Below, one piece after another: positions 28,017 to 59,980 of a DNA stretch of 64,000 bases. Made by a program: the position numbers and the translations under genes. How positions within the stretch are numbered: the first letter of the stretch is position 1; the number at the start of each line of letters is the position of its first letter. This DNA is from a virus. The DNA lies in the IMG/VR virus record IMGVR_UViG_3300002092_001378, positions 1 through 64,000 of that record; one strand, 5' to 3'. Under the pieces are notes generated by a model. The model was not told where the DNA came from, did not search any database, and saw only the letters and a list, made by a program, of their open reading frames with translations.

Positions 28017-28061
28017 AATAGCACATTATAAGCCTTAATAAATAAAAAGAGGCTAGGAATA

Positions 28062-43500: not shown

Positions 43501-46500
43501 TTTACATCCAAGACTGTCAATGGTATATCATATACCACAGTACCAAATAATCCAGCAAGCACCACTACTAATAGCAGTGCTGGTACAAATGCAAAGCTTA
43601 CATTAACATATGATGTTTCTTCATATATTAGCGGTGATACATTTGATCTTGATTATCTGATTGAATACAAAACAAGAGAATGGAAGCCAAATACCAGTTA
43701 TCTTAAAGACACTATTATTGTTTATAAGAAGAAGCCATATGTTGCACTATGCAACTTTACAAGTGGTAGATATTTTGAATGTAATACTGATATTTCGATA
43801 ACAAATTCGGTTACTTGGGAAGCAAACACATATTTTGTAAAGGGTTCTGTTATTGTCAATGACAATACTGCTTATCTAGTAGCTGACAACTATACAAGTC
43901 CAATCTTGTTTACTAATTTTGTTGCGCAGTCAACTATAGCATGGACTGCAAATACATTCTTCACTGAAGGGCAAATCTTAAAGTTTGCTGGCATTTCCTA
44001 TAAGGTATTAAATGATTACACTTCTGCTGGATCATTTGATACAAATAACTTAGTGGAGCTTTATGAAAATTATATCATTAACGTATTCCCAATTGCCGAG
44101 TACACCGGCGGATATTTTGATGATGCAAGTTCTAGAGTTTGGGGTTATTATCAACCAGCAGCTGGTATGCCAGGAAAAGATCTTGCTCAGGTCATGACAG
44201 GTATTGATTATCCAGGTGTAAACGTACTTGGTGCAACATTTGATCAAGCTCCTGGATACGGATTTGGATTATATGAACAAATAAAGTATGATACTAGAAC
44301 CTACGATGAAAATGGATTACTTGATATCTATGGCAGTCAGTCATTGGATACAGTACTGCATAGTCTTTACACTGACACTCAACTTGGTCTACGTCCGGCA
44401 GATATTATAAGTGATGGTTCGCAGTTTATTGATGTCTATAACAGTCATGCTCCTGAAGAATTAATTCCCGGACATATGTTTGATAGCTTAAACATGAGAG
44501 TTAAGACTTTGACTGCAACTGTGGTTGAAACTGCTCCTAAAGTATTAGTAGTTTCTCAATATGCAGACAATGTGACAACTAAGTTTTATTTTGATCCAGC
44601 GTTGCTAAGTCCTCCTCAGCCACATACAAACTTGCCAGTTGAAAACATTGAAAATGTAACAGTATTCAGTGACTTTGAAGGACCAAGAACTCAGGGTGTT
44701 GATTACACAGTTAATTGGGAAGCTCGTTATATTGAATTCCTAAATCCTCCAAAAACACCAAGCAGCATCTATATTTCAATATATGGTAACAGTGGTCAGA
44801 GAGTTGTTTATAATAACGAATTTATATCTGACGGTATACAGTTAGAATATGTGGCCGAAGATGTAACTTTAGATGTTGTGCAACAGGCTTATGTAAAAGT
44901 CAACAATGTACTTGCAGATAATTGGACTATTGTAAAAAATGATATAGTTGCTGATTGGCTACCGGTCTTTAGTTACAGCAAGGATGATTATGTACAATAC
45001 GAAGGGATAACATATAGAGCAACCGAAGATTTCACAACTGATGTTGAGTTTAATTTAACATATCTTACAGCAGCAAATAAAGTCGTTATTAGATTTGATG
45101 AGGCACCAGAGGCAGGAGCAAGAATACAAATTCACTTGTATGATTTCCCAATTACACAGAAAGCATACAGTCAAATTATGAATGAGCGTGTAGTAGTGCC
45201 AGTGGGTTATTCTGGGTCAGCACTTGGCTATCAGACTGATTTGCCAGAAGATCAAGGATTTGCGTATCCAAGAGAAGCAAATATGGTAGTCAAACTCAAT
45301 GGATTAACACTGGAGCCAAGTAATCAAAGTTATTATACTGGTACAGGTATGAAAACTTTATTTGCTATGTCAGCTACACGAAACATTGCCAATAAATTAC
45401 AAGTTGATTTAATTGTTACTGTTGATGGGGTATTAAAATCTCAAAATCTAGACTACCTAGTTAATAATAATGGTGTGGCAACTCCAACCATTACATTTAC
45501 TACACCCCCTCCAATGGGATCAAGAATTATTATAAGTGATAGAAGTACATCAAAGTATATTATTAATGATACAAATGTATTAACTATACGTCCAACTGTC
45601 GCTTTAAGTCCAGGTGATGTCATTGATATTGTACAGTACAGTAACTATGATCAATATCAATTTAATGTACAAGTATTTTCCGGATCATTAACTGATACGG
45701 TTAGTGCTGCATTGGGATTTGAAGATATTGGCTTTGATCAAATGGGATTTGATAATGAATTAACCAATACCCTAAGTTCAGTAACCTTTACAGTTACTAG
45801 ACCAGTGACAAATATTTCAAATGTTGAAATTACATTGAATGGTATTGTATTGCAAGCATATATTGATTACTACTTCGTAACACCAACAGTAGTTCGTTTG
45901 GATCCAGGGTTAAGCATTGTTAGTGACTCAATTATTGTTATAAGACAAGTGAGTGAAGATCATGCTCTACCATCACTGGAATACCGAATCTTTAAGAACA
46001 TTGCAGAAACTTATGACTACATTGGTATTGGTGCATCTACTACAACAGTATTAACTAAGGACTTTGCAATTGGTGATGAGTGGATGTATGTTCAAGATAC
46101 TACGGTATTTGGAAGACCTGATCCATCACTTGCAATCCCAGGTATATTGTTCTTAAATGGTGAACGAATCACATATTATTTTGTTGATACAATTAACAAG
46201 AGATTAGGCCAATTAAGAAGAGGAACAAATGGAACTGGTGCTGGCGATCTGTACGAAAAAGGCACAAAAGTATATGATGCAAGTGCTAAAAATGAGATTC
46301 CAATGGCTAGAGACACATATACTATAACAAATCCAACTATTAATTGGAAAGCTGAAACTAGTATTGTAAAGGACTCATTAATATCACATGATGGTTTGAT
46401 CTACAGATCTTCTATGAATTTCACACCAAATACAGATTTTGAAACAACAATGACAATGTTTTATCAAGTAACATTGTTAAACACAATCAAGTGGACTGCC

Positions 46501-46914
46501 AACAGATCATTCTCCGCAGGTACTATTATTAGTAACAGTGGAGTATTCTACAAAGTTCTAAACGATTTTACGTCAGGAGCTAGTTTCAGCAGAACTAATT
46601 TGGCTACAGCATTGCCCTGGGTAGCAAATACTGCTTACGTCAAGAATGACCTAATCAGTTACAATGGTGCAACTTACCAAGCAAAGGCATCGTTTACCAG
46701 TAGAAGTGCATTTGAAACTTCAATTGTTGTTCTTACTGAAACTGGCATTGCAACACTACTAATGAATAAACAAGGTACTGTTATATCGTTACCACCCAAT
46801 AGCCTAGTACGTCAAGGTAAAATTTGGCTAAATCCAGGGTATGCTGGGGTAACTGACGGCAATGGATTATTAGCTTCAACTTCTCAACAGGCATTGTTCC
46901 TAAAGGCATTATAA
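31501..46914 (+). CDS. Giant (5137 aa) baseplate wedge/structural protein, gp7-like position, with beta-propeller and carbohydrate-binding-like repeats
   Basis: Uninterrupted 15.4-kb ORF after gp6; FG...VVGAPG repeats; EVKPYHTKI motif; about ten W-x-(A/P)-N-T-x-(Y/F) repeats; IxxxGxGY repeats. Confidence 0.8.
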   Translation: MVDKNSLEFLPQVFRTNTNKRFLNATVDQLIQEPNMGRIYGYIGRQDLSPAFQQGDAYVQESDSYSQYYQLEPGLVINKRIVGTNNFKKDNAYNYVDLLNGIAQEGGINTNHSRLFANEYYNYEGFIDLDKLINYGKYYWVPNGPTTLEINGGGVPTYETFNISRPLDSGILSATLINRNVGSVGYSIDTQPGVINPTITVARGGHYTFNLAQPGHPLYIQSEPGINTGSSYQENINVRQVYGVNGNGTEVGTITFSVPSKDSQAFFEEMPVFDTVDLVLDVPFNQLQDAYVTDFLLDGSLDGIKSVTSKRVVLINDQDDFWIDPVPYDEFGNPYDSGSYDASEIVPKEKRRGIWQLNNVEGVIKISYVKDWPANTKVFVREGRTYGHINVFKDTLLNIYPVPTLTAPLDTLYYQDGADANVYGVIKIVDPDPNSGLNINEILGQEEYTSPNGVKLTSGLKIKFNGLITPESYLDREFVVEGVGKSISLIPWDSLVTPDPNNPNLGDGFAADSQSYDSLNYDYSLNAPLRKDYIVINRGSTDGNAWSRTNRWFHEDVIRYSATFLDSEAAVALDNNYRAIRPIIEFDPNLQLWNHGQKLVDTVTVIDNYITDVANQVEGLNPYVLVYANRGNSIRKVVSKSSHINVKTLSFDSVTDLSIDMKVIGVNISTNTTIEAIDYNKKIVTISNPLVGEITLGSEITFNGDYVSDDIPLENGTKVIFIREKYGNVRNKVYEVKNILPHSGLPVTKSVTQFASIGNQILKFGTVNDLFVNMHLTGTNIPANTVVLSIDSTNRTVTVNNKISNDIGVGSAITFSNDLTQIHLTPLHTMEEGDSVVAISGLTRQNQTYWWHNEAWLRAQNKFSLNQSPLFDVFNLDGISWGNTDYYGSSTFAGSKLFGYKEGTGTRDSELGFPLTYRSIGNIGDIVFENYYDTDTFTFNYNNKDQILATRFGYVHEFSAMYRTFKLRNNWTKVADLSKQYIEKRFVASQNLRNNFTVDVAFVNSFNEKNCSVHVNGKEIITGDFYTLMGNSTSSVISFVNDLNVGDVLIIRIYGTPNGVKENFTLPKNLVDNSFNDTFETLTLGQIRNHLLEIASNSLKFQGEPSGLNNLRDIDYKIIPGKILQHSAGVHIAQAMFNNDSTNIIKAIDFSRRNYTRFKDRFFYLVSSMEFPDTDDARGCLDIVMEEITLNSSNDQSFYYSDMMPFGINTYVYNDYTVYDTAYRTFNLVNSFNITEPSYQAVLVYQNNQQLLIGIDYTVNGFVVKLTNELNLEINDVISIYEYTNTRGSMIPATPTKLGLYPKFTPQIYLDNTFVDEPLNVIQGHDGSKSIAFDDYRDNIILEMEKRIYNNISVEFKNDANTSYLGVEPGAFRKTDYSLDEWTQLLSGSYLNWAGANNVNVFDNTTSDDSPFSFNYGAGYDVLFDEGIPGYWRGIYKYFYDTDTPHLTPWEMVGFSQEPTWWQVRYGPAPYSAGNLVLWQDMEAGVVYQHGYDSYTDIRYARPGLNQIIPVDEHGNLLAPYAGGDGFGIVTRWNSATSTAKWRFGDQSPQETAWRRSSEYPFAVQTAWALARPAQYCALSLNRRDLIRLNGLDQIINKVTANRKLNIQVTNDDYYVPGSNVWIRDRLADLNLDIVQNFVEIFDNLSLNLLYKASGYTDKSYVQLLADQASPSSTNSGIIVPQENYDIMVTKSAPIGVATYSAVVIEKTSNGFSVYGFDTSKPYFTVIPRRYNNNTYNIKVSNSTAVVYMDDENSILTIPYGTQFTSKQQVVDFLISYSKYLTSIGFQFIDTTSVETVPNVADWQLSVGEFLYWIEQGWDNKTLISLTPAGTKINFNSGFGVVDKINDSFNDSKVVDSNGKTLQTKDYTVFRSGTQFELKLRDVATGIHLIVMQVVQYEHTFVFDNVTVFNDVIYEPSLGNRQFRVRISGFKTRDWDGSLYAPGFLVNFMPINNWQPMKDYYKGEIVDFKNIYYTARQFVPGNSKFDVNNWYIVPNDNSLLSKQLIPNLAFNAQQFENFYDVDKFDINRSADSAARNATGFVAREYLNDIGLDNISQHKFYLGMIREKGTQAAVNAFLRAKLPYLNNTVKIDEQWAIRLGNFGGYNQKKDIEISLAGAKTYNSSYIIELIEANDTRSESWNSYKPKDLLVKPAAFDTNIFSSNEEYAPMIPMAGHVVNSEVDVTIFDINKINNASSLVTVLGEGSRIWVASDTKNNWKVYRITADYKITIIGAVVVNNEIEFTTDVAHTLSRNDFIMIKRGSITSTASGNKDLSGFYRVNAVSGKKFRVPVYPNGTSASGAMTGELYVLKTVRFSDRSRFAINPPGRGWQNGDRVWIDGLDGNWEVLGNQSPWLNNYTLSPVFGTNSHLFGNGIDLKTTQDIMVVGAPGKDKGYVYVYEQMGDNTWSVANSVTPENSYTSQFGYSVKYNDLDLAVVGAPGSNSGAGFAYIMQTSSSAIQINQIINPAGLTSSSGFGTAVAASSDGNWVAISAPGTNNVLIYKYKKVTVPANKSYTLTKLIYGQPTHTIIPDLVGTGKIAADLRVTLNQAMLVPNIDYTVAEGASGTEITLTFPNWQANTFYKIGDQFYYSPVIYNPTETHIWTVTAPFTSGATFSTTWTDPVTSTTATVMTQSLSTLTMTYDSYYEYKTTITLSNGTTSPKFGSSLSFATDGSQLIVGSPNYSPTATDVNVGQVNVYQRRIETFIANGVSKVFTLATSTTNPDVIVNGTLLTTGYTFVSSTLTLDTVPSADSIVTVATNAFNLIETKSPTVVQSYGYYGSKVLICPKSCSLYVGSPGYNNVNYGNGAVYRYVNEARTYGSIVGQNSNPTLTIGDYLRINNVKVAFTGTTVTQLVKDINNALIPGITASLLRGNLVLKTDSEIAFNKITVDASSTTVLATLGLTIFKSSQIITSNADQDTVNFGNQIAINNDSTKLLISANVANNRTIITFDQGRTTFDSRSTKVLSIAYRSGCAYLYEYMGDATETAATPGAFTFAQTFNNSVLATNDYFGTGIALGKNWVMVSSLNSKNNNAGAVYTYLNSNGLDNWRVVRSKPTNIDVRKLERLYLYNNNTKTLITDLPIIDPEHGMPVPSAPEQIRYMVNYDPAIYNNSPNNNTFANDSRNAWADEHVGELWWDTNQIKYADWNQGDLLNRFNNWGLSFPNSYISVYEWVESDVIPSQFATSKSTTIPVYTVSDVYTAKTKIDPLTLQAVTKYYFWVVNSNSNSSMKHRDTAVALQNLIVNPRNINQPFAAVIAGNALALFNCKDIVNEDTVLHISVNDNLTVNPVHREWSMFDDGTDLGVAEEFLNRMNDSMAGEDAQGRTVPDPGLTEKEKYGLDVRPRQTTFADRFKAREIWVNNVNAAFIKYPMSILRDLTDLNDYDPLPMVDGIDIKLQVDYDTDLPYINKAFYTQGDKILVVNDSTTGGWCIRKLLPNPANTVENSWQVYQIQTYDLRKYWEYADWYATQYSKDTPVSKILNYEYEIANSNPEIGDVIKILAGTDGKWKLILVQENSLELIGQQNATIQFSRSLYSNLNAGFGFETISWEVTSYAKDAAIEFRKIFNTTNNYLLTNELRSEYKALIGTMIDNIATQFKQNDWLFKTSLINIRHNVRSLDQIPVYTKQPENVVSGFISEVKPYHTKIKQYVSIYDKTDTSLLDVVDFDLPAYYNSQLGKYRQPQLGNPFDDAVIDNVIYSPWIANHTYSIDYIDIASPGSGYNNETKILIMGDGVGATATAYVRGGQLYDIIITNPGKGYTYANIKVLGIGSGASAYVKLGRATARMISTKLNFDRFTYTQLTKDWAANTIYSINDIVLHNNTVYRIATGNKGRSGDQNVVLSVMDAVVSSSGTGYQPGDKLYVTSKDAQAETISLYNASLGTVADTTVFARAAFNVDAIKLASVTIQNGGSNYAVGNTIVFELDNDVNVVLSVTAISGGGAIGPITAVSIANAGKRTVVPAANPLKYDILTQGAAANQPTGYGATFNFVWGIRNVSIDNPGAFTSKTVNGISYTTVPNNPASTTTNSSAGTNAKLTLTYDVSSYISGDTFDLDYLIEYKTREWKPNTSYLKDTIIVYKKKPYVALCNFTSGRYFECNTDISITNSVTWEANTYFVKGSVIVNDNTAYLVADNYTSPILFTNFVAQSTIAWTANTFFTEGQILKFAGISYKVLNDYTSAGSFDTNNLVELYENYIINVFPIAEYTGGYFDDASSRVWGYYQPAAGMPGKDLAQVMTGIDYPGVNVLGATFDQAPGYGFGLYEQIKYDTRTYDENGLLDIYGSQSLDTVLHSLYTDTQLGLRPADIISDGSQFIDVYNSHAPEELIPGHMFDSLNMRVKTLTATVVETAPKVLVVSQYADNVTTKFYFDPALLSPPQPHTNLPVENIENVTVFSDFEGPRTQGVDYTVNWEARYIEFLNPPKTPSSIYISIYGNSGQRVVYNNEFISDGIQLEYVAEDVTLDVVQQAYVKVNNVLADNWTIVKNDIVADWLPVFSYSKDDYVQYEGITYRATEDFTTDVEFNLTYLTAANKVVIRFDEAPEAGARIQIHLYDFPITQKAYSQIMNERVVVPVGYSGSALGYQTDLPEDQGFAYPREANMVVKLNGLTLEPSNQSYYTGTGMKTLFAMSATRNIANKLQVDLIVTVDGVLKSQNLDYLVNNNGVATPTITFTTPPPMGSRIIISDRSTSKYIINDTNVLTIRPTVALSPGDVIDIVQYSNYDQYQFNVQVFSGSLTDTVSAALGFEDIGFDQMGFDNELTNTLSSVTFTVTRPVTNISNVEITLNGIVLQAYIDYYFVTPTVVRLDPGLSIVSDSIIVIRQVSEDHALPSLEYRIFKNIAETYDYIGIGASTTTVLTKDFAIGDEWMYVQDTTVFGRPDPSLAIPGILFLNGERITYYFVDTINKRLGQLRRGTNGTGAGDLYEKGTKVYDASAKNEIPMARDTYTITNPTINWKAETSIVKDSLISHDGLIYRSSMNFTPNTDFETTMTMFYQVTLLNTIKWTANRSFSAGTIISNSGVFYKVLNDFTSGASFSRTNLATALPWVANTAYVKNDLISYNGATYQAKASFTSRSAFETSIVVLTETGIATLLMNKQGTVISLPPNSLVRQGKIWLNPGYAGVTDGNGLLASTSQQALFLKAL

Positions 46915-50456: not shown

Positions 50457-52049
50457 ATGTCATATAGTATTACTACGTCCAATAACGCAACTTCCTATCT
50501 GGTACCAGATGGTCGTTTAAATTCCGACACTTCCTTGGATTTTATTGGTAAGGGAACAACTGCATATGGTACATCACTTAACTCAAATTTTTTACATCTA
50601 TTAGAAAGTTTTGCGGCACCAACTCCTCCAGCGCGATCAATTGCTGGGCAAATATGGTTTGATACTTCAACTGGATACCTTAAAGTCAGCAATGGGCTTG
50701 GATTTAATTATGTAACGGGCCCAATTGATTTTATTGATCACAGTACAATTGGTAATATTTTACTACAGTCAAGCAGTATTACTGGCACACTCACTAACGC
50801 TAATGTAAACATTACACCCAATGGTACAGGAAGCACTGTAATTAAGAACATTGCATCTAATAATTTTACTGTTGGTCGTGTTCCTTATATTGCTGCAAAT
50901 GGTGCATTAGTTACAAATGCAATGAGTTATAATGTAGTAACTGATACATTAGCTGCCGCATATCTAACTGCTGGTAGTGGTATATCAGGGCTATTAACTA
51001 CTGCTGCTCAGACTAATATTACAAGTCTCGGAACTTTAAATACACTTGCGGTTAACAGTGCAAGTGCAATTTCACTTACTTCTGCAAATACAAATGTTGT
51101 TGGGAACGCCACAGTTAGTGCAAATCTAGGAGTCAGTGGCACTGGTAATTTTGCTGGTACGGTTAATGCAGCGACAGTATTAGCAACTTCAATTGGTAAT
51201 TCAACTACTGTAATGACTGCTGCTACATTTACTGGCACACATAATGGAACACACAACGGTGCATTAAACGGGGCACATAATGGAACTGTTGGTGCAACTA
51301 CTGCTAACACTGGAAATTTTACCACTATCACTGCTTCGACGATCAGTACGACTGGTGGATTGTCTGGAGTTGCAACAAACTTCAATACGAATCCAGCAAG
51401 TATAGATACAGGTAGAATATTTGCTATCTATAATACAAATTATATGCCGGGAGCAAGTTACAGCTCTTCTGATTCACGTATATTTGACTTTGGTGTGACT
51501 ACTGGTAATATCGCTTATCTACGTACAAGTGGAACCAATGGGTTTCAAATTTTATCAGGTGGAAGTGGCACCAGTTTTAATAACTCAATATTACCTACAA
51601 CTACTGCCACCTATAATTTAGGTTCATCAGGTGCTACTTGGGCAACTATCTACGGTCTAGCAACATCTGCAAAGTACGCTGACTTGGCGGAAAATTATGT
51701 TGCTGATGATGATTATGAGCCCGGCACTGTTGTTATATTTGGTGGGGATCAGGAAGTTACTGTTTGCGATAAAGATGCAAGCAATGCTATTGCTGGTGTA
51801 ATTTCAACTGAACCAGGCTACTTAATGAATGCTGCAATTAATGTACCACATGTTGCCACAGTGGCATTAGTTGGCCGTGTTCCAACTAAGGTTAAAGGGC
51901 CAATTAAAAAGGGACAGATGCTGGTTGGAACTGCTGACGGCATGGCTCGCGCAGAAGACAATCCCAAGATGGGAACAGTAATTGGCAAGGCGCTTAAAGA
52001 CTTTAACGGTGACGTTGGGGTTATTGAAGTTGTAGTTGGGCGTCTCTAA
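50457..52049 (+). CDS. Fibre protein 3 with a C-terminal intramolecular-chaperone/peptidase-like domain
   Basis: Shared N-module; T/N/G-rich shaft; AKYADLAENY...GRVPTKVKGPIKKG...IGKAL C-terminal domain. Confidence 0.75.
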   Translation: MSYSITTSNNATSYLVPDGRLNSDTSLDFIGKGTTAYGTSLNSNFLHLLESFAAPTPPARSIAGQIWFDTSTGYLKVSNGLGFNYVTGPIDFIDHSTIGNILLQSSSITGTLTNANVNITPNGTGSTVIKNIASNNFTVGRVPYIAANGALVTNAMSYNVVTDTLAAAYLTAGSGISGLLTTAAQTNITSLGTLNTLAVNSASAISLTSANTNVVGNATVSANLGVSGTGNFAGTVNAATVLATSIGNSTTVMTAATFTGTHNGTHNGALNGAHNGTVGATTANTGNFTTITASTISTTGGLSGVATNFNTNPASIDTGRIFAIYNTNYMPGASYSSSDSRIFDFGVTTGNIAYLRTSGTNGFQILSGGSGTSFNNSILPTTTATYNLGSSGATWATIYGLATSAKYADLAENYVADDDYEPGTVVIFGGDQEVTVCDKDASNAIAGVISTEPGYLMNAAINVPHVATVALVGRVPTKVKGPIKKGQMLVGTADGMARAEDNPKMGTVIGKALKDFNGDVGVIEVVVGRL

Positions 52050-52702
52050 ACATAGTCTGCATCAAAAACAATACAGTTTCTAGGTAAATCACTGTGATGT
52101 TCAGTTACTGCATGCCATACTTCAGGTTTATGAAGTACTAATTCTCCCTCTGATGGCTGCAAATACCATTTGTCTTTTTCATCATAGATCGTGTGCAATG
52201 TGTCAGGTATACCGTTTTTAATAAACACCAAATTACTAGAATTTTCAGGCACATCTAGGTAAAAAATTGCCACTATATCAGCTCTAAAATTTTCACTACT
52301 TAAATCAGTATATTCTGCCATATAAGAATCTAGCTCAATATGTCTATGACATTTGCCCTGTGATCCTTTGACCATTCTATTTGCCCAAGCACGTTTATAA
52401 GAAACACTAGTGCCCAATTTATTGATTCCAAGTGTGTTTTTTGCTAACAAAATTTGTTCGCTTACCCATTGAGTTAAAGGTTGAGCGCCAGGCAAATGTA
52501 TTACTTGCAAGTATGTCTGCCCAACAGTTGTCATGCCTCCGCCCACATGGCTATCTCCACGCGGTGCTTTTACTCTGAATTTTACTTCAGGTAAATTTAA
52601 TACACGATTAATACTTTTTGTTAAATCGCTGTTCCTATATAGTGATACATCTGTGCATTGTATTCTAACTACAGTGCTGCCAAAAACATTTTCAACTTTC
52701 AA
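52046..52702 (-). CDS. 2OG-Fe(II) oxygenase (TIGR02466-like)
   Basis: WANRM...HRH...AIFYL...PSEGELVLH...WHAV...RNCIVF; TTG start with AAGGA RBS. Confidence 0.75.
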   Translation of the reverse strand: MKVENVFGSTVVRIQCTDVSLYRNSDLTKSINRVLNLPEVKFRVKAPRGDSHVGGGMTTVGQTYLQVIHLPGAQPLTQWVSEQILLAKNTLGINKLGTSVSYKRAWANRMVKGSQGKCHRHIELDSYMAEYTDLSSENFRADIVAIFYLDVPENSSNLVFIKNGIPDTLHTIYDEKDKWYLQPSEGELVLHKPEVWHAVTEHHSDLPRNCIVFDADYV

Positions 52703-54083
52703 CTTTTTTCCTTATGAAATCTGCATGATCTTGTAAATGACTTGTATCTAGATTTTTAACCTGTAAAGGCTTTATGATTCCAATTCCTGCCATAACATAT
52801 TTCCAATCTTTAAAATCCAATGGTCTTAAGTAGTCTGTTACTTTGTTTGTGGGCATTATTCTTATCAAATAATCTAAATCTTTTTCAGTTAACTTTTCAC
52901 CAAATTCAATGACATTTTTTACCAAGTCTGGTATTGTATTTTTGTTTTTAAAATTGCGCCAAAAAACGGTGTCAGTTCTTTTGGTCATATAATGTAAGTG
53001 TACAAAACAGGAGTTTTCTTCGTTAAGCTGCCTAACTGCATTATTGTATTCATCAATGGACTGTTGGTGTTTGTGTCTGCCCATGCCATTAATTTTTGCT
53101 TGTAGCATCCTTAGGCTCATAATTGAAATGCCAATTGCAGTTGCTTCTAAAGGTTCAGCAAATCCACTGGAAAGCCCAATGGCAATGCAATTATTGATCC
53201 AAGTTTTTTCGTAACAGCCTGCATTAAAATTAAAAATCTTAGGAGGAATTACTTCAACTCCAAAATATTCTTCTAATTCTTTTTTAATTTCCTCATCAGT
53301 AGCTAGGTTACTGTCAAATACATAACCACACCCAAATCTATCTTGTACAGGAATCTTCCAAGCCCACCCATGTTTCATTCCAATAGATTCTGTATATGAA
53401 GGAATATTTTCATTGTCATGTGGTAAAAAAAATGGCATTGCTCTATTAACAGGTAAAAAATCTGCATAGGAATGCCAAGTAGCTTTGTAAAAATTACCTA
53501 TAATTAATTTTTTAAACCCGCTGCAATCAAATACAAAATCTAGTTTAATTTTTTGATTATTGGATAACACTAGCTCACTGATGTCATTTTTATCATTCGG
53601 TATTATTTCTGTTACTTGTGCATCTATATATTCTATACCACGTTGAATGGCAAACCCCTTAAGGTAGTCGGCCATTATCATTGCGTTAAAATGAACTGAA
53701 TCTTCGGTCAATATTCCATTATGTCTAATTCGTTGATTGTTATAATCAAAGAGAACTTTATTTTCTTTTGCTGCTGCGATACTGATATCTTCTGTGGAAG
53801 AAATAGCTGAATGAAAATAAGAAGTGCCGTCTCCGTTCCAGTTAGTAAACTTAATAGCATTTTTTATGGTAATTTTACATTTCTTTATTACTTCATTGAA
53901 GTCCAACCCCAGATCATTTTCTAAAAATTCACTGAAATTTTTAGTGGTTCCTTCACCAGCACCAAGTACTCCTATTTCACTACTTGCGACAACCGTTACA
54001 TTGCTATATGGGATATTTTTTTGCACATACAATGCCGTAAGCCAACCAGCAGTTCCACCACCTACTACAACAAATTTTTTCAT
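52692..54083 (-). CDS. Flavin-dependent (tryptophan-type) halogenase
   Basis: VVGGGTAGW, GAGEGT, TIKNAIKF (catalytic Lys), FDCSGF, intact GWAWKIP, SGFAEPLEAT. Confidence 0.9.
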   Translation of the reverse strand: MKKFVVVGGGTAGWLTALYVQKNIPYSNVTVVASSEIGVLGAGEGTTKNFSEFLENDLGLDFNEVIKKCKITIKNAIKFTNWNGDGTSYFHSAISSTEDISIAAAKENKVLFDYNNQRIRHNGILTEDSVHFNAMIMADYLKGFAIQRGIEYIDAQVTEIIPNDKNDISELVLSNNQKIKLDFVFDCSGFKKLIIGNFYKATWHSYADFLPVNRAMPFFLPHDNENIPSYTESIGMKHGWAWKIPVQDRFGCGYVFDSNLATDEEIKKELEEYFGVEVIPPKIFNFNAGCYEKTWINNCIAIGLSSGFAEPLEATAIGISIMSLRMLQAKINGMGRHKHQQSIDEYNNAVRQLNEENSCFVHLHYMTKRTDTVFWRNFKNKNTIPDLVKNVIEFGEKLTEKDLDYLIRIMPTNKVTDYLRPLDFKDWKYVMAGIGIIKPLQVKNLDTSHLQDHADFIRKKVES

Positions 54084-54658
54084 GACAAATACCTAAATTC
54101 TAATACCAAACTTACTCTTAAATCATCGCTAAGGTTTGTTTCAACGCTATGAATAGCATAAGAAGGAAATAAAATAAGTTTGCCAGGTTCCGGAGTTACT
54201 CGATGTGTCATATAACCTGAATTATTCTTCTTATTTGTATCAAATGTTTGTTTAACATATGGATCTTGCCATATGTCAGGAACAGATCCTCTTGCGTCAT
54301 GTATTAATAGATCTCCGCAATTTTTAGGAGCTTTTAAATAATAAACACCAACTACACCGTCTACATATGGATGGTGGTGTGGTGGATCACTTTCCAATGG
54401 TCGCCGAACATGTTGACGACCCCTTATTTGTACAGTATTAAAAGTAATACCATAATCTCTTGCAACTTGTTCGGCAATATCAATTACTTTATCTTTAAAC
54501 TCAGTGATACCCTCACCCGGCATATCAAATAGTATATAATCCCCATTGGCCTTATAGTTTAAGGTATCCATTAATATTTTCTTGTTCATCATTCTAGCAT
54601 CGTCAAAGTTAACAATCCAGACTGGGGTAGAAAACATTAGATTAGTATTAATATCCAT
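54080..54658 (-). CDS. 2OG-Fe(II) oxygenase (TIGR02466-like)
   Basis: MFSTPVW, PHHHP, GVYYLKAPKNCGDL, PEPGKLILFPSYAIHSV, RVSLV; start ATG 54658. Confidence 0.85.
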   Translation of the reverse strand: MDINTNLMFSTPVWIVNFDDARMMNKKILMDTLNYKANGDYILFDMPGEGITEFKDKVIDIAEQVARDYGITFNTVQIRGRQHVRRPLESDPPHHHPYVDGVVGVYYLKAPKNCGDLLIHDARGSVPDIWQDPYVKQTFDTNKKNNSGYMTHRVTPEPGKLILFPSYAIHSVETNLSDDLRVSLVLEFRYLS

Positions 54659-55229
54659 TTTCAATCCCTTTATTGATAAATCTAAATTCAAATACTACAC
54701 TAATCCTTGTATCATTGCTAAAATTGGGTTCGACTGAATGTATTAGATAGTTGGGAAACAATAGTAACATGCCAGGTTTAGGTTCAATCTTAACAGATAC
54801 CCTCCCGTCCCTCATTATACCATCATTGGTAATATTAGGATCTTTCCACATATTTGAAACTGAACCTCGGCAGTCTATAAACTGTATGTCCCCGCAATTT
54901 TTTGGAGTTTTAAGGTAATATATACCTAGCATATCAGACCCTGGATGATGATGTGGGGTATCAAACTCGCCAGGTTTCATTGGGTTAAGTCGACTTCGAA
55001 TATTTAAATTATCGTACACCCAATTATTTTCAACAGCAATTTCTGTAACAGCATCTATAATAATTTTTTTAAGTTCGGCAATGCCCTCACTTGGTAAATC
55101 AAGAAATTCTTGATTTCCGGTTTTATATTCAGCACTATCTACTATGAGTTTTTTATTTAAGAACCGATAATCTTCAACTTGATATATCCACAGTGGAGTA
55201 GCAAACAGTTGCTTTACTTGTCTTTGCAC
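54648..55229 (-). CDS. 2OG-Fe(II) oxygenase (TIGR02466-like), paralog of the downstream gene
   Basis: LFATPLW, PHHHP, GIYYLKTPKNCGDI, PKPGMLLLFPNYLIHSV, RISVV; GTG start. Confidence 0.85.
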   Translation of the reverse strand: MQRQVKQLFATPLWIYQVEDYRFLNKKLIVDSAEYKTGNQEFLDLPSEGIAELKKIIIDAVTEIAVENNWVYDNLNIRSRLNPMKPGEFDTPHHHPGSDMLGIYYLKTPKNCGDIQFIDCRGSVSNMWKDPNITNDGIMRDGRVSVKIEPKPGMLLLFPNYLIHSVEPNFSNDTRISVVFEFRFINKGIENGY

Positions 55230-55230
55230 A

Positions 55231-55890
55231 TTAAAGTCTTTCTAGATCCTGCTTCAATTTAGAAACGATGTCATCGTGTAGATCTTCATTGTCATAAATT
55301 TCAGATGTCAGTGAATATTCAATAACAATATGATTTGGTTCAATGGCAGAGAACACATTGTAAATTAAATCAGCTGGTACTGTGTCTAGTGTATGACCGG
55401 CAACTTTACATGAAATTACAATCTTGTCCTCTCCATATAATTCATAGACAGTAACAGCCTCAACGCCATCAACGTCGTCAATTAATTGTAACAGTTTTGA
55501 CAAATTATCAGAGTAATTGGAAATAGGAGCTAATGAACGATTGTTATAAAGCAGAGAAGAAACTTTTGTTTCAGGATCAATGAAAAAAGTAATGTTTTTA
55601 GAATGGTCATTACTTAATGTAGATATCACTGCAAACGCTTCTTCCGCAACATTTGTTTTTGCCAACTGATCGACTGAGTCAATTAAATTATCAGTAACAA
55701 CTATATTCAATACTCCACCGTCAAATTCAAAAATAAATTTAATTAAGTTTTTGCCAGTGATATTATACTTGCTTGCTATTTGCTTTACTGTGATTTCGTC
55801 TGGCACGTCGACTGATGCCTTTGTAAAAGCACTATGCCCTGTAAATAAATCAAATACCTTTTGTATATTTTTAGTAACTGTTATTGACAT
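55231..55890 (-). CDS. Hypothetical protein in the radical SAM cassette
   Basis: 219-aa ORF tightly coupled to the rSAM gene (3-bp gap), AAGGA RBS; no motif recognised. Confidence 0.7.
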   Translation of the reverse strand: MSITVTKNIQKVFDLFTGHSAFTKASVDVPDEITVKQIASKYNITGKNLIKFIFEFDGGVLNIVVTDNLIDSVDQLAKTNVAEEAFAVISTLSNDHSKNITFFIDPETKVSSLLYNNRSLAPISNYSDNLSKLLQLIDDVDGVEAVTVYELYGEDKIVISCKVAGHTLDTVPADLIYNVFSAIEPNHIVIEYSLTSEIYDNEDLHDDIVSKLKQDLERL

Positions 55891-55893
55891 TTG

Positions 55894-57360
55894 TTATCCT
55901 TTAAGGCTTTTTGCAAGCCATCCTTCAACTTTTGCCTGACCGTAAATTTCTATGTCGTCAATCATTCCAGTTTTTTCAATTACTACCTTTTTAGTAGTCC
56001 ACTTGGGAGTATTCATATCCGTATGTTCATAAACAGTTCCCCAAATGTCTTGCCTACCCAATGGCAATCCGTCGCCTTCAATGGTAACAGGAATAAACCC
56101 ATTGGTCATTTTTACAAAACTTAGAGCAAATAAAGGAACATTATCTGAGTATGCACTGTCGCAAGTTGCATCCCAATTTGGACCATCTAGATACATGCAA
56201 GATCCCTTGCATAGCTGTAGTACAGGACAATCTTTACACCCTGCTCTATTTTTCCAATGTGTGACAGATTTTAATGCTACATTAGCATAATCTTCTAAAT
56301 TACCACCTAGATGCGGCTCACCATTCTTACTTAATTCCTTAACACTTACATTTTGACATGTGACAATGTTACCCAATAGGTCCACAGCAATTGTATGCTC
56401 ATCATCCATGCCGCATTTTTGTCCAAGATTTGCAGCATCAAAATGATTCAAAACACTTTTAGTAAAATTATCAATTTTTTCGTATTGCCCATAAAATCCC
56501 AATGTATCTTCGTATCCATACACATCATTAAAACTCTGACGTCTATATTCAAAATGTTCATTCAATGTAGCAAAACTACTATTAAGGCCATCATCGTCGT
56601 AAGCATCGACGAAAGACCCTTCGCCTATAATTACATCAGGATCGCCGGTAAATTCAACAAACCAATCATAAACTGCACGTCTGCTGGTATTACTTTTGTT
56701 CATCATAGTATTAAAGCTAATCCTGCCATGTGGTTTCATAACTTTATAGAATTCCATAAGAATTTTCTTTTTTTCAGGATCAATGAATGGGTCCGGACCT
56801 CTTGTTGGTTGCCCAGGGCCATCATGGCTAATGCCAACATTAAAGCCCATATAATACAACCACGAGCAAATTTCTCTAGTTAGTAAACTGCCATTAGTAA
56901 TAACACTGAAAACAGGTTTTGTTTTCCAACTATCAAATTTCTCATCAAGTGCTTCTGCCAATGGTTTTAATGTCTTCCAATAAACGAAAGGTTCTCCGCC
57001 CCAAAATTCAATCTTTAACCCTTTATCTTCACGAAATTCTAACACATCCATTTTAGCAAGAAATGCATCTATATCCTTCTTACTGGTCTCATCAGGACGT
57101 TCAACAAACTTTTGACTACAATAGCTGCATGAATAGTTGCAACTTAACCCCAATTGAATTTTAAGTGTATTAATTTTATTTGATTTTAGTAGAGGATCTT
57201 CTTTGGAAAATGCTCGGCTGGGAGTTAATCCAGAAAAATTTGCAAGATTAGGATATTCAAAAACAAATCCTGATTCATCTGTCAGAATATTTTTTTGATT
57301 GTCGTAAAAAAATGTTTTACGACCCTCGCCAGCCTTTTCTGCTTCTACTTTAAATAACAT
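55894..57360 (-). CDS. Radical SAM enzyme with SPASM domain (anSME/peptide-maturase class)
   Basis: CNYSCSYC (CxxxCxxC), FWGGEP, ITNGSLL, ISHDG; SPASM cysteines KCG...TCQ...CKDCPVLQLCKGSC...TC. Confidence 0.92.
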   Translation of the reverse strand: MLFKVEAEKAGEGRKTFFYDNQKNILTDESGFVFEYPNLANFSGLTPSRAFSKEDPLLKSNKINTLKIQLGLSCNYSCSYCSQKFVERPDETSKKDIDAFLAKMDVLEFREDKGLKIEFWGGEPFVYWKTLKPLAEALDEKFDSWKTKPVFSVITNGSLLTREICSWLYYMGFNVGISHDGPGQPTRGPDPFIDPEKKKILMEFYKVMKPHGRISFNTMMNKSNTSRRAVYDWFVEFTGDPDVIIGEGSFVDAYDDDGLNSSFATLNEHFEYRRQSFNDVYGYEDTLGFYGQYEKIDNFTKSVLNHFDAANLGQKCGMDDEHTIAVDLLGNIVTCQNVSVKELSKNGEPHLGGNLEDYANVALKSVTHWKNRAGCKDCPVLQLCKGSCMYLDGPNWDATCDSAYSDNVPLFALSFVKMTNGFIPVTIEGDGLPLGRQDIWGTVYEHTDMNTPKWTTKKVVIEKTGMIDDIEIYGQAKVEGWLAKSLKG

Positions 57361-57384: not shown

Positions 57385-57765
57385 TTACCATAAACAAGCA
57401 CATAAACAAAGGCAATTGCAGTTATAAGAGCGTGTAGTGATAGTACAATTATATGTACATGCACAATTGCAATTGGTTTGTAGGTATGACTGTGCGTCGC
57501 AGTTTGCACAATCTACAGTGCCATTAATTACACAATTTACACAGTTAATATTGCCACTTCCCAGTGATTCAACACAATTCCCGTTATCGCAATTTCCATC
57601 AGCATTGCGCTGATAATATGCTTTACTATACTTGCCTGACAACGGATTGGTTGGTACTTTCTCAACAGATTTAATCCAGCTCATACTCACACTAAGAGTA
57701 GTTGCACGTCCAAGTTCAGTATTAACGTCGCTAAATTTAATTATTCCGGAAGCTGGTAATGTCAT
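57385..57765 (-). CDS. Cys-rich protein (15 Cys, 10 Asn-Cys pairs); candidate radical SAM substrate
   Basis: 126 aa from ATG 57765; Cys-free N-terminal half (MTLPASGIIKFSDVNTELGR...) and a C-terminal half ending NCNCACTYNC...NCNCLCLCACLW; directly upstream of the rSAM gene. Confidence 0.8.
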   Translation of the reverse strand: MTLPASGIIKFSDVNTELGRATTLSVSMSWIKSVEKVPTNPLSGKYSKAYYQRNADGNCDNGNCVESLGSGNINCVNCVINGTVDCANCDAQSYLQTNCNCACTYNCTITTRSYNCNCLCLCACLW

Positions 57766-57786
57766 GACTATTTCCAAATGTTACGG

Positions 57787-57794
57787 TATTTATC
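57787..57794 (-). promoter_or_regulatory. Late-promoter motif GATAAATA driving the rSAM cassette
   Basis: Plus-strand TATTTATC, 22 nt upstream of ATG 57765. A divergent TAAATA at 57857-57862 serves the next fibre gene. Confidence 0.6.
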
Positions 57795-57880: not shown

Positions 57881-59980
57881 ATGTCATATACAATTAATGT
57901 CACTAATAGTAATCCAATTACAATATTGTCAGGTACTTCAGATACCAGCACTGCACTTACGCTTGTGGGAAAGAATATTTCTAACTACGGAGAAATATTT
58001 GCTCAAAATTTTGTTGACTTAATGCAAAACTTCGCAAGCCCCAGTGCTCCAAATGGGATATTAGAGGGACAATTATGGTATGACAGTGGCACATATTCCT
58101 TAAAATTATATAAGAACGGCAGCTATAAAGTTATATCAACTATTTCATCCAGTACAACCGCCCCAACTGCCCCTTACATTGGTGATTTGTGGTGGGATAC
58201 GGCAAATAGTCTTCTTAAGATATGGAATACTACTACTTGGGTTTCTATTGGCCCCAACGTATTGAATACTTCCAGTTCAGCAGTTGCGGACGCTATACTT
58301 GACACCAATAATGTGCTGAGACCAATCTTAAAAATGGTAGTTGATTCGGCTGTTGTTGCAGTATTCAGTTCTGCTACCTTTGCACCTCAGACAACATATA
58401 ACGGGCTTACATTAATTTACGGTGGCATGACACTTGTTGGTACCGGAACAACTTTCGGAAACATTGTTAGCTCATTTGCGTCAATTACTACTCTTAACGC
58501 AACTACAACTAATGCTTCGCAAGTAAATGCTGTTACTGTAGTTGCCACAACAATTGGAAATGCTAATTCAGCAATACGAGGAACAAGTGCCACCGTTGCT
58601 GGCGCAATTACTGCTGCAACTGTCAATGCACTTAATATTGGAAACGCCGGAGCTACAATAACAGGTACACATAATGGTCCACATAATGGACCATTTAATG
58701 GAAATATTGGATCAGTAACTCCTAACACTGCTGTCTTTACAACTGTGACTGCTGATACTGTTACTGCAATAACTGTGACAGGTAATACTATAGGAAATAC
58801 TGGTGCTACATTAACTGGTACGCTCTCAACTGCTACTCAACCAAATATTACAAGTGTGGGAACATTAACTGGTGCAACAGTAAATGGAACTTTAACTGCT
58901 ACAACTGCCAATGCAACCACGGTAAATGCAACTACCACTAATAGTAGCACGGTAAATGCATCGACTGTTAATGCTGTAACACTAGCGGCAACAAATATTG
59001 GTAATGCTACCTCGGTTGTAACTGGTGCAAGTGCTGCAATAGCTGGCACAGTGACCGCTGCAACAGTTAACGCCCTGGCAATCGGAAACAACGGTGCGAT
59101 AATAACCGGAACACATAACGGTCCACTTAATGGACCATTTAATGGAACTATAGGCGCTACAGTTGCTAATACAGCAGCATTCACTACAATGGCAACATCG
59201 GGTACAACCAGTTTAGCAACATTGAGTGGTAATGTTGGGATTGGTACTGCGTCAGCTGCTGCAAAATTACATGTTGCGGGAACACTTAATTTAACGAGCA
59301 CACTGTCAATATCTGGTGCTCCAGGTGGGAGTGGGCAATTCTTAACATCCGGTGGCGCAGGCGCCGCCCCTACTTGGACTAGTATGCGTAGCGGATTTAG
59401 CGACATGGTAGTTTATGGTGTGGCAGGCACTTATGCTTGGACTGTGCCGGCAAATGTTACTAAAATAAAAGCAACTGTTGTTGGTGGCGGTGGTGGTGGC
59501 GGCGGCAGTGGCCAAAATTATGATAGTGGCGCTGGTGGCGGCGGTGGTGGCACATCCACTAAAATTATTAGCGGTTTAACTCCTGGAACTTCTATTACTG
59601 TCACTGTTGGTGGTGGTGGCGGAGGTAGTAATGGTTGGGGAGGAACTGGGCAAACTGGCGGAACTTCGTCTGTTGGTTATTGCAGCGCGACAGGTGGTGA
59701 AGGTGGTGCTCCAACTTCTGGCTCTGGTGGCGTTGGCGGCATAGGTAATAGTGGAGATATTAATATTAGAGGTCAGGCAGGTGGTTCCGGCATTGCGTGT
59801 GGTACATACGGCGGTAGTCCTGGGGGCAATGGCGGATCTTCTACGTTGGGTGGCGGCGGCCAAGGCGGATCAGGTACTGGTGGCATTGGTGGATCTTATG
59901 GCGGAGGCGGAGGCGGCGCCGGTGGTATATACACCTCAGGTGGCGCAGGCGCCACGGGTGTTGTAATAATAGAATACTAA
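57881..59980 (+). CDS. Fibre protein 4 with internal duplication and Gly-rich C-terminal domain
   Basis: Shared N-module; duplicated T/A/N-rich segment ending GTHNGPxNGPFNG; WTVPANVTKIKATVVGGGGGG...GATGVVIIEY Gly-rich tip. Confidence 0.8.
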   Translation: MSYTINVTNSNPITILSGTSDTSTALTLVGKNISNYGEIFAQNFVDLMQNFASPSAPNGILEGQLWYDSGTYSLKLYKNGSYKVISTISSSTTAPTAPYIGDLWWDTANSLLKIWNTTTWVSIGPNVLNTSSSAVADAILDTNNVLRPILKMVVDSAVVAVFSSATFAPQTTYNGLTLIYGGMTLVGTGTTFGNIVSSFASITTLNATTTNASQVNAVTVVATTIGNANSAIRGTSATVAGAITAATVNALNIGNAGATITGTHNGPHNGPFNGNIGSVTPNTAVFTTVTADTVTAITVTGNTIGNTGATLTGTLSTATQPNITSVGTLTGATVNGTLTATTANATTVNATTTNSSTVNASTVNAVTLAATNIGNATSVVTGASAAIAGTVTAATVNALAIGNNGAIITGTHNGPLNGPFNGTIGATVANTAAFTTMATSGTTSLATLSGNVGIGTASAAAKLHVAGTLNLTSTLSISGAPGGSGQFLTSGGAGAAPTWTSMRSGFSDMVVYGVAGTYAWTVPANVTKIKATVVGGGGGGGGSGQNYDSGAGGGGGGTSTKIISGLTPGTSITVTVGGGGGGSNGWGGTGQTGGTSSVGYCSATGGEGGAPTSGSGGVGGIGNSGDINIRGQAGGSGIACGTYGGSPGGNGGSSTLGGGGQGGSGTGGIGGSYGGGGGGAGGIYTSGGAGATGVVIIEY

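Follow-up and report, generated by a model that had tools for sequence, protein, structure and literature searches.

We identified a gene for a 126-amino-acid (aa) cysteine-rich protein, P0001, on the minus strand at 57385..57765 (stop codon included) of a 64,000-nucleotide stretch of viral DNA, positions 1 to 64,000 of the IMG/VR record IMGVR_UViG_3300002092_001378 (hereafter the window), directly ahead of a gene for a radical S-adenosylmethionine (SAM)/SPASM enzyme. On balance, we favour the reading that P0001 is a late, fibre-associated protein modified by this dedicated enzyme, probably through thioether cross-links from Cys to Asn or Asp. The reading draws on the pairing of the two genes across phages, a late-promoter element ahead of the Cys-rich gene, the modularity of the N-terminal domain, the tail-fibre context and the self-cleaving domains added to relatives of the protein. 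More tentatively, phages may in general use radical SAM enzymes to cross-link their fibre tips by thioethers, the tip here being a separate protein that could in addition be hydroxylated and carry a halogenated or otherwise flavoenzyme-modified C-terminal Trp.

A radical SAM/SPASM enzyme paired with the Cys-rich gene

The presumed maturase is a 488-aa radical SAM/SPASM enzyme (55894..57360, minus strand), whose gene begins 24 bp downstream of the P0001 gene and which contains a CxxxCxxC motif at residues 74, 78 and 81 and seven SPASM cysteines. In 80 viral loci sampled from the P0001 family, which spans 169 viral contigs, a homologue of this enzyme (42-68% identity) was located within 3.3 kb of the Cys-rich gene on the same strand in all 80, standing on either side of it, upstream or downstream. 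The radical SAM cysteines C74, C78 and C81, together with C316, C335, C375, C378, C384, C388 and C400, were 100% conserved in 74 homologues. We presume that seven rather than eight SPASM cysteines would keep one iron free to bind a substrate thiolate, as happens in CteB.

The enzyme matched PF04055 and TIGR04085, and its best NCBIfam matches were PapB (ranthipeptide), the geopeptide maturase, QhpD, CcpM, a Nif11-type maturase and the SCIFF maturase, with 8vpo and CteB as its best relatives in the PDB. Judged by its sequence, the enzyme is an intact SPASM peptide or protein maturase with a conserved Cys-rich neighbour gene, and is assigned to a new subfamily of such maturases. A second, unrelated radical SAM gene (~505 aa, matching PF04055 alone, with no PHROG match) was present just before the Cys-rich gene in several cassettes of the window's type (L007:8439-9971 and about ten other loci resembling the window).

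A bipartite protein with a conserved Asn-Cys-rich core

The open reading frame (ORF) of P0001 extends from an ATG at 57765 to a stop codon at 57385-57387, with the conserved M-T-L-P start favouring this ATG over an upstream TTG at 57777. The ORF is real, as it is matched by homologues that keep M1, T2, P4 and most of the cysteines, and the overlapping ORFs in other frames of 57385-57765 had no comparable homologue support. The earlier note on this DNA had described a Cys-free part fused to a Cys-rich one, a layout confirmed by the cysteine count, with none in residues 1-58 and 15 in residues 59-126 (positions 59, 64, 75, 78, 86, 89, 99, 101, 103, 107, 116, 118, 120, 122 and 124), and further by the relative P0148, in which a Gly-rich domain is inserted between the N-terminal motif and the core. 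Against a background of 0.78% Cys among the residues of this genome's ORFs of at least 200 aa, the binomial probability of 15 Cys within the 68 residues is P ~8e-18.

Ten of the 15 cysteines are preceded by Asn. The Asn-Cys-rich core, which comprises residues 56-126 and holds all 15 cysteines (57388..57600, minus strand), contains two CxxC, six CxC, six NxxC and two Cxxx(D/N) spacings, including a CxxC-x7-CxxC arrangement from C75 to C89, and terminates in an Asn-Cys ladder followed by Trp (residues 115-126, 57388..57423, minus strand; NCNCLCLCACLW), so that the protein ends CNCLCLCACLW.

Relatives of P0001 formed 97 clusters at 90% identity, with 103 representatives at 50% identity, and the source names of the members of its cluster were all 'hypothetical protein'. 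In alignments of 26 sequences (A1) and of 149 sequences, conservation reached at least 90% at M1, T2, P4, G57-N58-C59, N61, C75, C78, C86, N88-C89-D90, Q96, C99-N100-C101, Y105-N106-C107 and C116/118/120, and N88, C89, D90 and Q96, at 90% or more of the 149 sequences, were invariant in A1. The core is more conserved than the N-terminal part. P0001 gave zero matches to Pfam, PHROG and NCBIfam models, and the ESM Atlas returned unnamed viral clusters alone for the family. A tblastn search of the cultured-phage collection with the whole protein yielded weak matches to the N-terminal motif alone and no phage encoding the entire protein, and an 8-kb megablast against the phage collection gave no match.

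Self-cleaving domains behind the ladder in relatives

Relatives of P0001 occur in four forms, according to whether the protein stops after the ladder or continues into a Peptidase_S74 domain, a Hint domain or a domain of ~170 aa, and P0001 itself is of the form that stops. S74 and Hint domains are placed directly behind the ladder. The S74-type relative P0002 is 85% identical to P0001 and has the junction ...CACAW/SDDMLK (the slash marks the boundary), and PF13884 (Peptidase_S74), which P0001 lacks, was found in P0002, P0012, P0037, P0087, P0103 and P0125 behind junctions of the type ...W/SDxxLK. Hint-type relatives have the junction ...C/CF(L/P)(P/A)G, as in gp028 of Achromobacter phage JWF (below). 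Both S74 and Hint domains cut themselves off, so three of the four forms would yield the same free C-terminus that P0001 attains by its stop codon. In addition, S74 chaperones are known in trimeric fibres and spikes, which suggests, by analogy, that the Cys-rich domain of this family trimerises.

The ~170-aa domain is exemplified by L002:5581-6105 and occurs in ~38 other loci, with the consensus CSKIiC.KLy..G...ADQ.YG.wL...YrGYirWAriVTaWMdGkGP.... It had no Pfam match, unnamed clusters alone in the ESM Atlas and no consistent hydrophobic segment; a membrane-anchor interpretation of it was dropped, as a hydrophobic window was present in 8 of 39 alone.

A modular N-terminal domain

AlphaFold2, run with the 149 sequences, modelled residues 1-55 (57601..57765, minus strand) as three short helices and a strand with a predicted local distance difference test (pLDDT) score of 85-90, and a first model based on 26 sequences resembled it. 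A Foldseek search of the PDB with the first model and a wide VIA-align search with the second each returned nothing, while BFVD yielded one member of the family plus weak hits at the N-terminal ends of small phage proteins.

The domain begins with the motif MTLPASGxIxxSxVNTELG (residues 1-19; hereafter the N-motif), which is spanned by PHROGs 26817 and 26746 (function not assigned) and whose profile matched nothing among PDB sequences. The earlier note had likened this N-terminus to the start of many small phage tail-tip or adhesin-like proteins, and it had proposed a profile search with a list of the C-terminal partners. That search yielded 542 proteins, many with unrelated C-terminal domains and a doubled motif, in keeping with the N-motif being a modular phage element. 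A hidden Markov model of the motif also detected it on non-Cys proteins from the sampled loci themselves, a Gly-rich protein of 348 aa (L034:3805-4851, with a weak gp38-type match) and a protein of 362 aa with BNR-like repeats (L053:6557-7645), both of which have the N-motif without a Cys core and share islands with the Cys-rich/radical SAM pair.

A relative with the doubled motif matched 58 cultured-phage records (Vibrio, Pseudomonas, Erwinia, Serratia, Alteromonas, Pelagibacter and others). In both of the records inspected, Ralstonia phage RPSC1 and Vibrio phage PhiImVa-1, the N-motif ORF either begins on the stop codon of a tail-fibre gene or overlaps it, and about one-third of the listed matches in the 58 records overlap an annotated fibre gene. 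In RPSC1, a T7-like phage, this ORF (L082:4001-4315) is unannotated, and the stop codon at which it begins closes the annotated tail-fibre gene.

The further suggestion of the earlier note, that the N-terminus serves as a leader, was not supported. The fibre partners of the wider enzyme family, found in 61 of 65 loci (next section), have the ladder and no N-motif, and the 58 N-motif records show no overlap with the 8 cultured-phage records that carry the enzyme. Since the domain is folded in the model and heads non-Cys proteins in phages that lack the enzyme, it is better described as an adaptor than as a leader. By the AlphaFold2 model, the modularity of the motif and the weak fold matches in BFVD, residues 1-55 are a small adaptor domain.

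Ladder-tailed fibres across a wider enzyme family

A profile scan extended the radical SAM family, which corresponds to PHROG 1802, to at least 538 viral contigs. We examined 84 loci of this wider family, of which 65 had at least 3.5 kb of upstream DNA, and a same-strand protein with the motif NCxCxC was present in 61 of these 65. All 67 ORFs with NCxCxC, out of 5021 ORFs, were partners of the enzyme, and the motif lay at the very C-terminus in 54 of them. P0001 is the sole ORF with NCxCxC in the 101.7-kb contig to which the window belongs. PHROG tail-fibre families were matched by eight of ten sampled partners, including three collagen-like ones (E down to 1e-105), and two were unmatched. The N-motif and the extended core seen in the 126-aa family were absent from all wider-family partners, so that the element common to all partners of the enzyme, fibre proteins included, is the terminal Asn-Cys ladder.

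A tblastn search also turned up enzyme homologues in cultured phages, 44% identical across 90% of the length. Achromobacter phage JWF has, in order, central fibre J, gp027, gp028, gp029 and radical SAM gp030, where gp028, two genes upstream of gp030, is a 484-aa fibre with gp36-type repeats and an NCNCDCNCNC ladder followed by a Hint domain. In Ralstonia phage RSP15, the side fibre ORF048 ends in NCQCGN and lies three genes upstream of the enzyme, ORF045. Full-text literature searches and the papers on relatives of JWF yielded no description of a phage radical-SAM/ladder-fibre system.

About 45 of the 84 wider-family loci contain two conserved proteins (~285 and ~205 aa) between the ladder fibre and the radical SAM gene, for example L097:3531-4400 and L097:4397-5008, and one subgroup has a 2-oxoglutarate (2OG) oxygenase in that place (L102:4231-4815).

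Genomic context and a late-promoter element

The P0001 gene resides in a baseplate and tail-fibre module, as judged by PHROG matches to a baseplate wedge subunit (E 8e-284), a hub/lysozyme protein and several tail-fibre families. It is divergent from a tail-fibre-type gene of 699 aa with a Gly_rich_2 C-terminal domain (57881..59980, plus strand), and another tail-fibre-type gene, of 530 aa (50457..52049, plus strand), is convergent with its cassette. In 22 of the 80 loci, the end of a fibre gene lies at most 2.2 kb upstream of the Cys-rich gene, and in 13 of these the two genes directly abut; 35 loci have the pair in a T4-like island between replication genes, and 23 show other contexts. The T4-like island is bordered on one side by a PHROG-624 DNA-binding-protein gene (possibly dsbA-like) with a small unannotated gene, and on the other by exonuclease, gp59 and gp32 homologues. 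This variety of contexts indicates that the Cys-rich/radical SAM pair moves as a cassette.

The heptamer ATAAATA, the core of T4-type late promoters, occurs at 57787..57793 (minus strand), ~28 nt upstream of the P0001 ATG. The contig contains 19 such sites, 13 of which fall within 60 nt upstream of gene starts, windows that cover 2.1% of positions (P ~4e-18). The genes preceded in this way include the baseplate wedge (28062), fibre genes (48564, 50457 and 57881), a 305-aa gene (60032) and the Cys-rich gene, with sites at 28038, 48541, 50428, 57856 and 60008 on the plus strand and at 57793, 8708 and 4122 on the minus strand; the distance to the gene is 22-32 nt, or 56 nt in the case of a 912-aa gene. 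The divergent 699-aa fibre gene has its own element, GATAAATA. ATAAATA is probably the late-promoter core of this phage, a relaxed form of the exact T4 late consensus TATAAATA, which is rare in the window (2 sites).

In the 35 T4-like loci, TATAAATA precedes the Cys-rich gene in 24, compared with 2 of 710 other genes and 1 of 32 radical SAM genes, so that the late element does not drive the enzyme gene there. In the full set of 80 loci, ATAAATA was found ahead of the Cys-rich gene in 44, versus 41 of 1267 other genes. The late-promoter element marks the Cys-rich substrate as a late gene even amid early replication genes. A scan of the cassette for sigma-70 promoters and terminators performed no better than on shuffled sequence.

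Putative tailoring genes and the C-terminal Trp

The cassette consists of seven tightly packed minus-strand genes, in the order Cys-rich protein, radical SAM enzyme, 219-aa protein, two 2OG oxygenases, halogenase homologue and a third 2OG oxygenase. The 219-aa protein (55231..55890, minus strand) is acidic, has no assigned function and belongs to a family confined to the cassette type that also has the halogenase. Behind it lie two 2OG-Fe(II) oxygenases matching PF13759, of 193 aa (54648..55229, minus strand) and 203 aa (54080..54691, minus strand). The predicted flavin-dependent halogenase homologue (52692..54083, minus strand) passes the threshold of PF04820 (E 3e-91) with both of the expected motifs, GxGxxG at residue 8 and WxWxIP at residue 240, and a third 2OG-Fe(II) oxygenase of 218 aa (52046..52702, minus strand) completes the run.

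Oxygenases of the 2OG type stand beside the pair in 56 of the 80 loci, and one locus type has instead a homologue of Asp/Asn beta-hydroxylase (PF05118), which fits an Asn-rich substrate. In the example L005:11809-12585 (gene cluster 5, 36 loci), of the T4-like island type, the PF05118 homologue is located behind the Cys-rich gene. Two further small genes (gene clusters 3 and 4) are also found behind the Cys-rich gene in T4-like islands and are candidate tailoring or partner proteins.

Where the DNA of short and S74-type relatives extends 5 kb or more downstream, a halogenase homologue was nearby in 18 of 18 cases in which the mature C-terminus is Trp, and in 0 of 8 cases with other C-terminal ends.

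Discussion

In the model that we propose, P0001 would be the dedicated protein substrate of the radical SAM/SPASM enzyme and would be made late, together with the tail fibres. Residues 1-55 may dock the protein on a fibre in the way that a gp38-type adhesin docks on its fibre. The enzyme would hold substrate Cys thiolates at its auxiliary Fe-S cluster and join the cysteines to side-chain carbons of neighbouring Asn or Asp as ranthionine-type thioethers, either inside one chain or from chain to chain in a trimer, resulting in a redox-independent covalent knot of a kind that disulfides could not give in the cytoplasm. The three 2OG oxygenases would next tailor the core, perhaps by hydroxylating Asn or Asp, and the halogenase-type flavoenzyme would then tailor the free C-terminal Trp. 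By analogy, thioether stapling fits the enzyme's nearest relatives, the PapB, QhpD, CcpM and SCIFF maturases.

Several observations weigh against this model. The chief one is that of the non-structural contexts, which argue against a general virion role: the 35 T4-like islands place the pair between replication genes and not beside fibres, an argument partly offset by the late promoter. The enzyme fell below every curated maturase-family cut-off, scoring 80 bits against the 340 required for PapB (NF047865) and still less for other families (QhpD, CcpM, SCIFF and CefB), so that its reaction cannot be read from homology. The gp38-type matches (PF05268) of N-motif relatives were weak and below threshold (17 bits, cut-off 25) and were confined to relatives without the Cys core (P0294 and L034:3805-4848), P0001 itself having no gp38 domain, as it has no Pfam match. 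AlphaFold2 left the core unfolded, with pLDDT <50, and the CxxC-x7-CxxC of the core could simply bind zinc. About half of the relatives (~300 aa) carry behind the ladder the conserved ~170-aa domain, which fits no model. The association of the halogenase homologue with the C-terminal Trp reflects few evolutionary events on the enzyme tree and is therefore suggestive and not proof. Finally, we infer the chemistry of the cross-links, the trimeric state and the location in the virion.

The core could instead fold around metal ions, as a Zn or Fe-S site, with the enzyme performing some other Cys or Asn modification or serving another substrate. The knuckle pair formed by CxxC-x7-CxxC is a classical one and is joined by CxCxC runs, metal sites are common in phage fibre tips (T4 gp37 and gp12), and the failure of AlphaFold2 on the core comes from a program that models no ligands. 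Furthermore, the sole match of the core profile among PDB sequences was the Spt4 zinc finger, which was not significant (E 0.4). Metal binding alone, however, leaves unexplained why a SPASM enzyme accompanies the Cys-rich gene in every one of the 80 loci and why the same enzyme family accompanies short NCxCxC ladders in 61 of 65, and metal coordination offers no obvious role for the Asn that is conserved in front of nearly every Cys. We consider metal binding an unlikely substitute for cross-linking, and the two can coexist.

We judge it improbable that the cassette makes a diffusible product like those of ribosomally synthesised and post-translationally modified peptide (RiPP) pathways, with the N-terminal part as leader and the modified core set free, while the cell is infected or lysing, to act as a signal, toxin or metal scavenger. 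The seven-gene run does resemble a biosynthetic cluster, comprising a substrate, a radical SAM/SPASM enzyme, three 2OG oxygenases and a halogenase homologue; the closest named relatives of the enzyme are RiPP maturases; and the pair lies outside structural modules in 35 of the 80 loci. Yet the marks of a classical RiPP pathway are missing, as the cassette has no pathway-specific leader and its Pfam and PHROG matches include no leader protease or exporter. The folded N-terminal part is also found on non-Cys proteins of phages without the enzyme, fibre proteins devoid of this part are also partners of the enzyme family, and the core is more conserved than the N-terminal part, the opposite of most RiPPs. 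Relatives that carry S74 chaperones, with their link to trimeric fibres and spikes, and a late promoter that the substrate gene has in common with fibre genes likewise argue against a diffusible product.

Least probable, in our estimate, is a late protein outside the virion, be it a scaffold or assembly chaperone that the fibres leave behind or a protein that targets the host envelope at about the time of lysis. Small genes immediately after a fibre gene often encode assembly chaperones (T4 gp38, Mu/P2 Tfa), and a cell-wall hydrolase gene is nearby in the T4-like island, but in the wider family the ladder belongs to the fibre's own polypeptide chain (JWF gp028, collagen-like fibres), and costly covalent maturation suits a durable extracellular part more than a discarded helper.

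The proposed stapling of P0001 by its enzyme has counterparts in several known systems. PapB acts on Cys-x3-Asp. NxxcB makes Cys-Asn beta-thioethers (PMC9389541). The six NxxC and two Cxxx(D/N) spacings of the P0001 core are motif types on which NxxcB and PapB act, and the ranthipeptide systems (streptococcal NxxcB/NxxcA, PapB/PapA of freyrasin and CteB/SCIFF), which provide the best profile matches of the enzyme, likewise have a radical SAM/SPASM enzyme beside a Cys-rich substrate. In contrast to these peptides, P0001 is a 126-aa protein with a folded N-terminal domain, its cassette has no protease or exporter, and its enzyme scores far under the family cut-offs; moreover, the P0001 system is encoded by phages, expressed late and tied to tail fibres, and its chemistry is a prediction.

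In Methanococcus voltae, the SPASM radical SAM enzyme CrpC installs ranthionine links on the full-length Cys-rich protein CrpA, whose cysteines lie in the C-terminal part and whose N-terminal domains help CrpC to engage it (PMC13692751). The P0001 system resembles CrpC/CrpA in presenting a SPASM enzyme with a full-length protein that has its cysteines in the C-terminal part, and differs in that CrpC/CrpA is archaeal and cellular and uses CPLVL-type motifs instead of Asn-Cys, with no sequence relationship detected. In quinohemoprotein amine dehydrogenase, the radical SAM enzyme QhpD forms thioether cross-links in the small Cys-rich subunit QhpC (gamma), after which the flavoenzyme QhpG modifies a Trp of the cross-linked QhpC (PMC7876137). 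Here too a radical SAM enzyme is accompanied by a flavoenzyme, a halogenase homologue that co-occurs with a C-terminal Trp, and QhpD is the third-best profile match of our enzyme (69 bits, cut-off 453). However, the phage cassette offers no quinone-cofactor context, and its flavoenzyme belongs to the Trp-halogenase family (WxWxIP) and not to that of QhpG.

Among phage proteins, P0001 is reminiscent of gp38-type adhesins and S74 fibres, as small proteins of its kind are encoded where fibre genes end, Gly-rich gp38-like proteins share its N-terminal domain, and close relatives end in an S74 chaperone, even though P0001 has neither an S74 nor a gp38 domain. We know of no gp38 or S74 system that is paired with a radical SAM enzyme. 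The nearest cultured counterparts, JWF gp028-gp030 and RSP15 ORF048-ORF045, have a homologous enzyme just after ladder-ended fibres, with a Hint domain in JWF as in relatives of P0001; there, however, the ladder ends a long fibre, and the N-terminal adaptor, the extended core, the oxygenases and the halogenase are absent.

To our knowledge, virion proteins are hardly known to undergo post-translational chemistry other than proteolysis, isopeptide linkage and glycosylation. If our model is correct, radical SAM cross-linking of fibre tips would be a new class of virion maturation, and would explain the purpose of the widespread phage radical SAM genes (PHROG 1802, with its at least 538 viral contigs, JWF and RSP15). 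It would also provide a candidate substrate for some of the many orphan phage 2OG oxygenases and halogenase homologues, and would bring structural proteins, beyond small secreted peptides, within the range of RiPP-type chemistry. On the more tentative reading of a halogenated tip, P0001 would be the first phage structural protein to be enzymatically cross-linked and halogenated. The system is open to direct test in cultured phages (JWF and RSP15) and by co-expression, and compact, heavily cross-linked Asn-Cys domains could serve as very stable binding scaffolds.

Other features of the contig

The C-terminal part of the 530-aa fibre protein (51450-52046, plus strand, around ...YADLAENY...) resembles the ends of fibre chaperones that cleave themselves, a candidate dropped after a PDB sequence search gave nothing significant. 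CheckV put the completeness of the 101.7-kb fragment at 29%, which points to a very large phage. Behind the baseplate wedge gene, a single ORF of 5137 aa occupies 31501-46914 on the plus strand.

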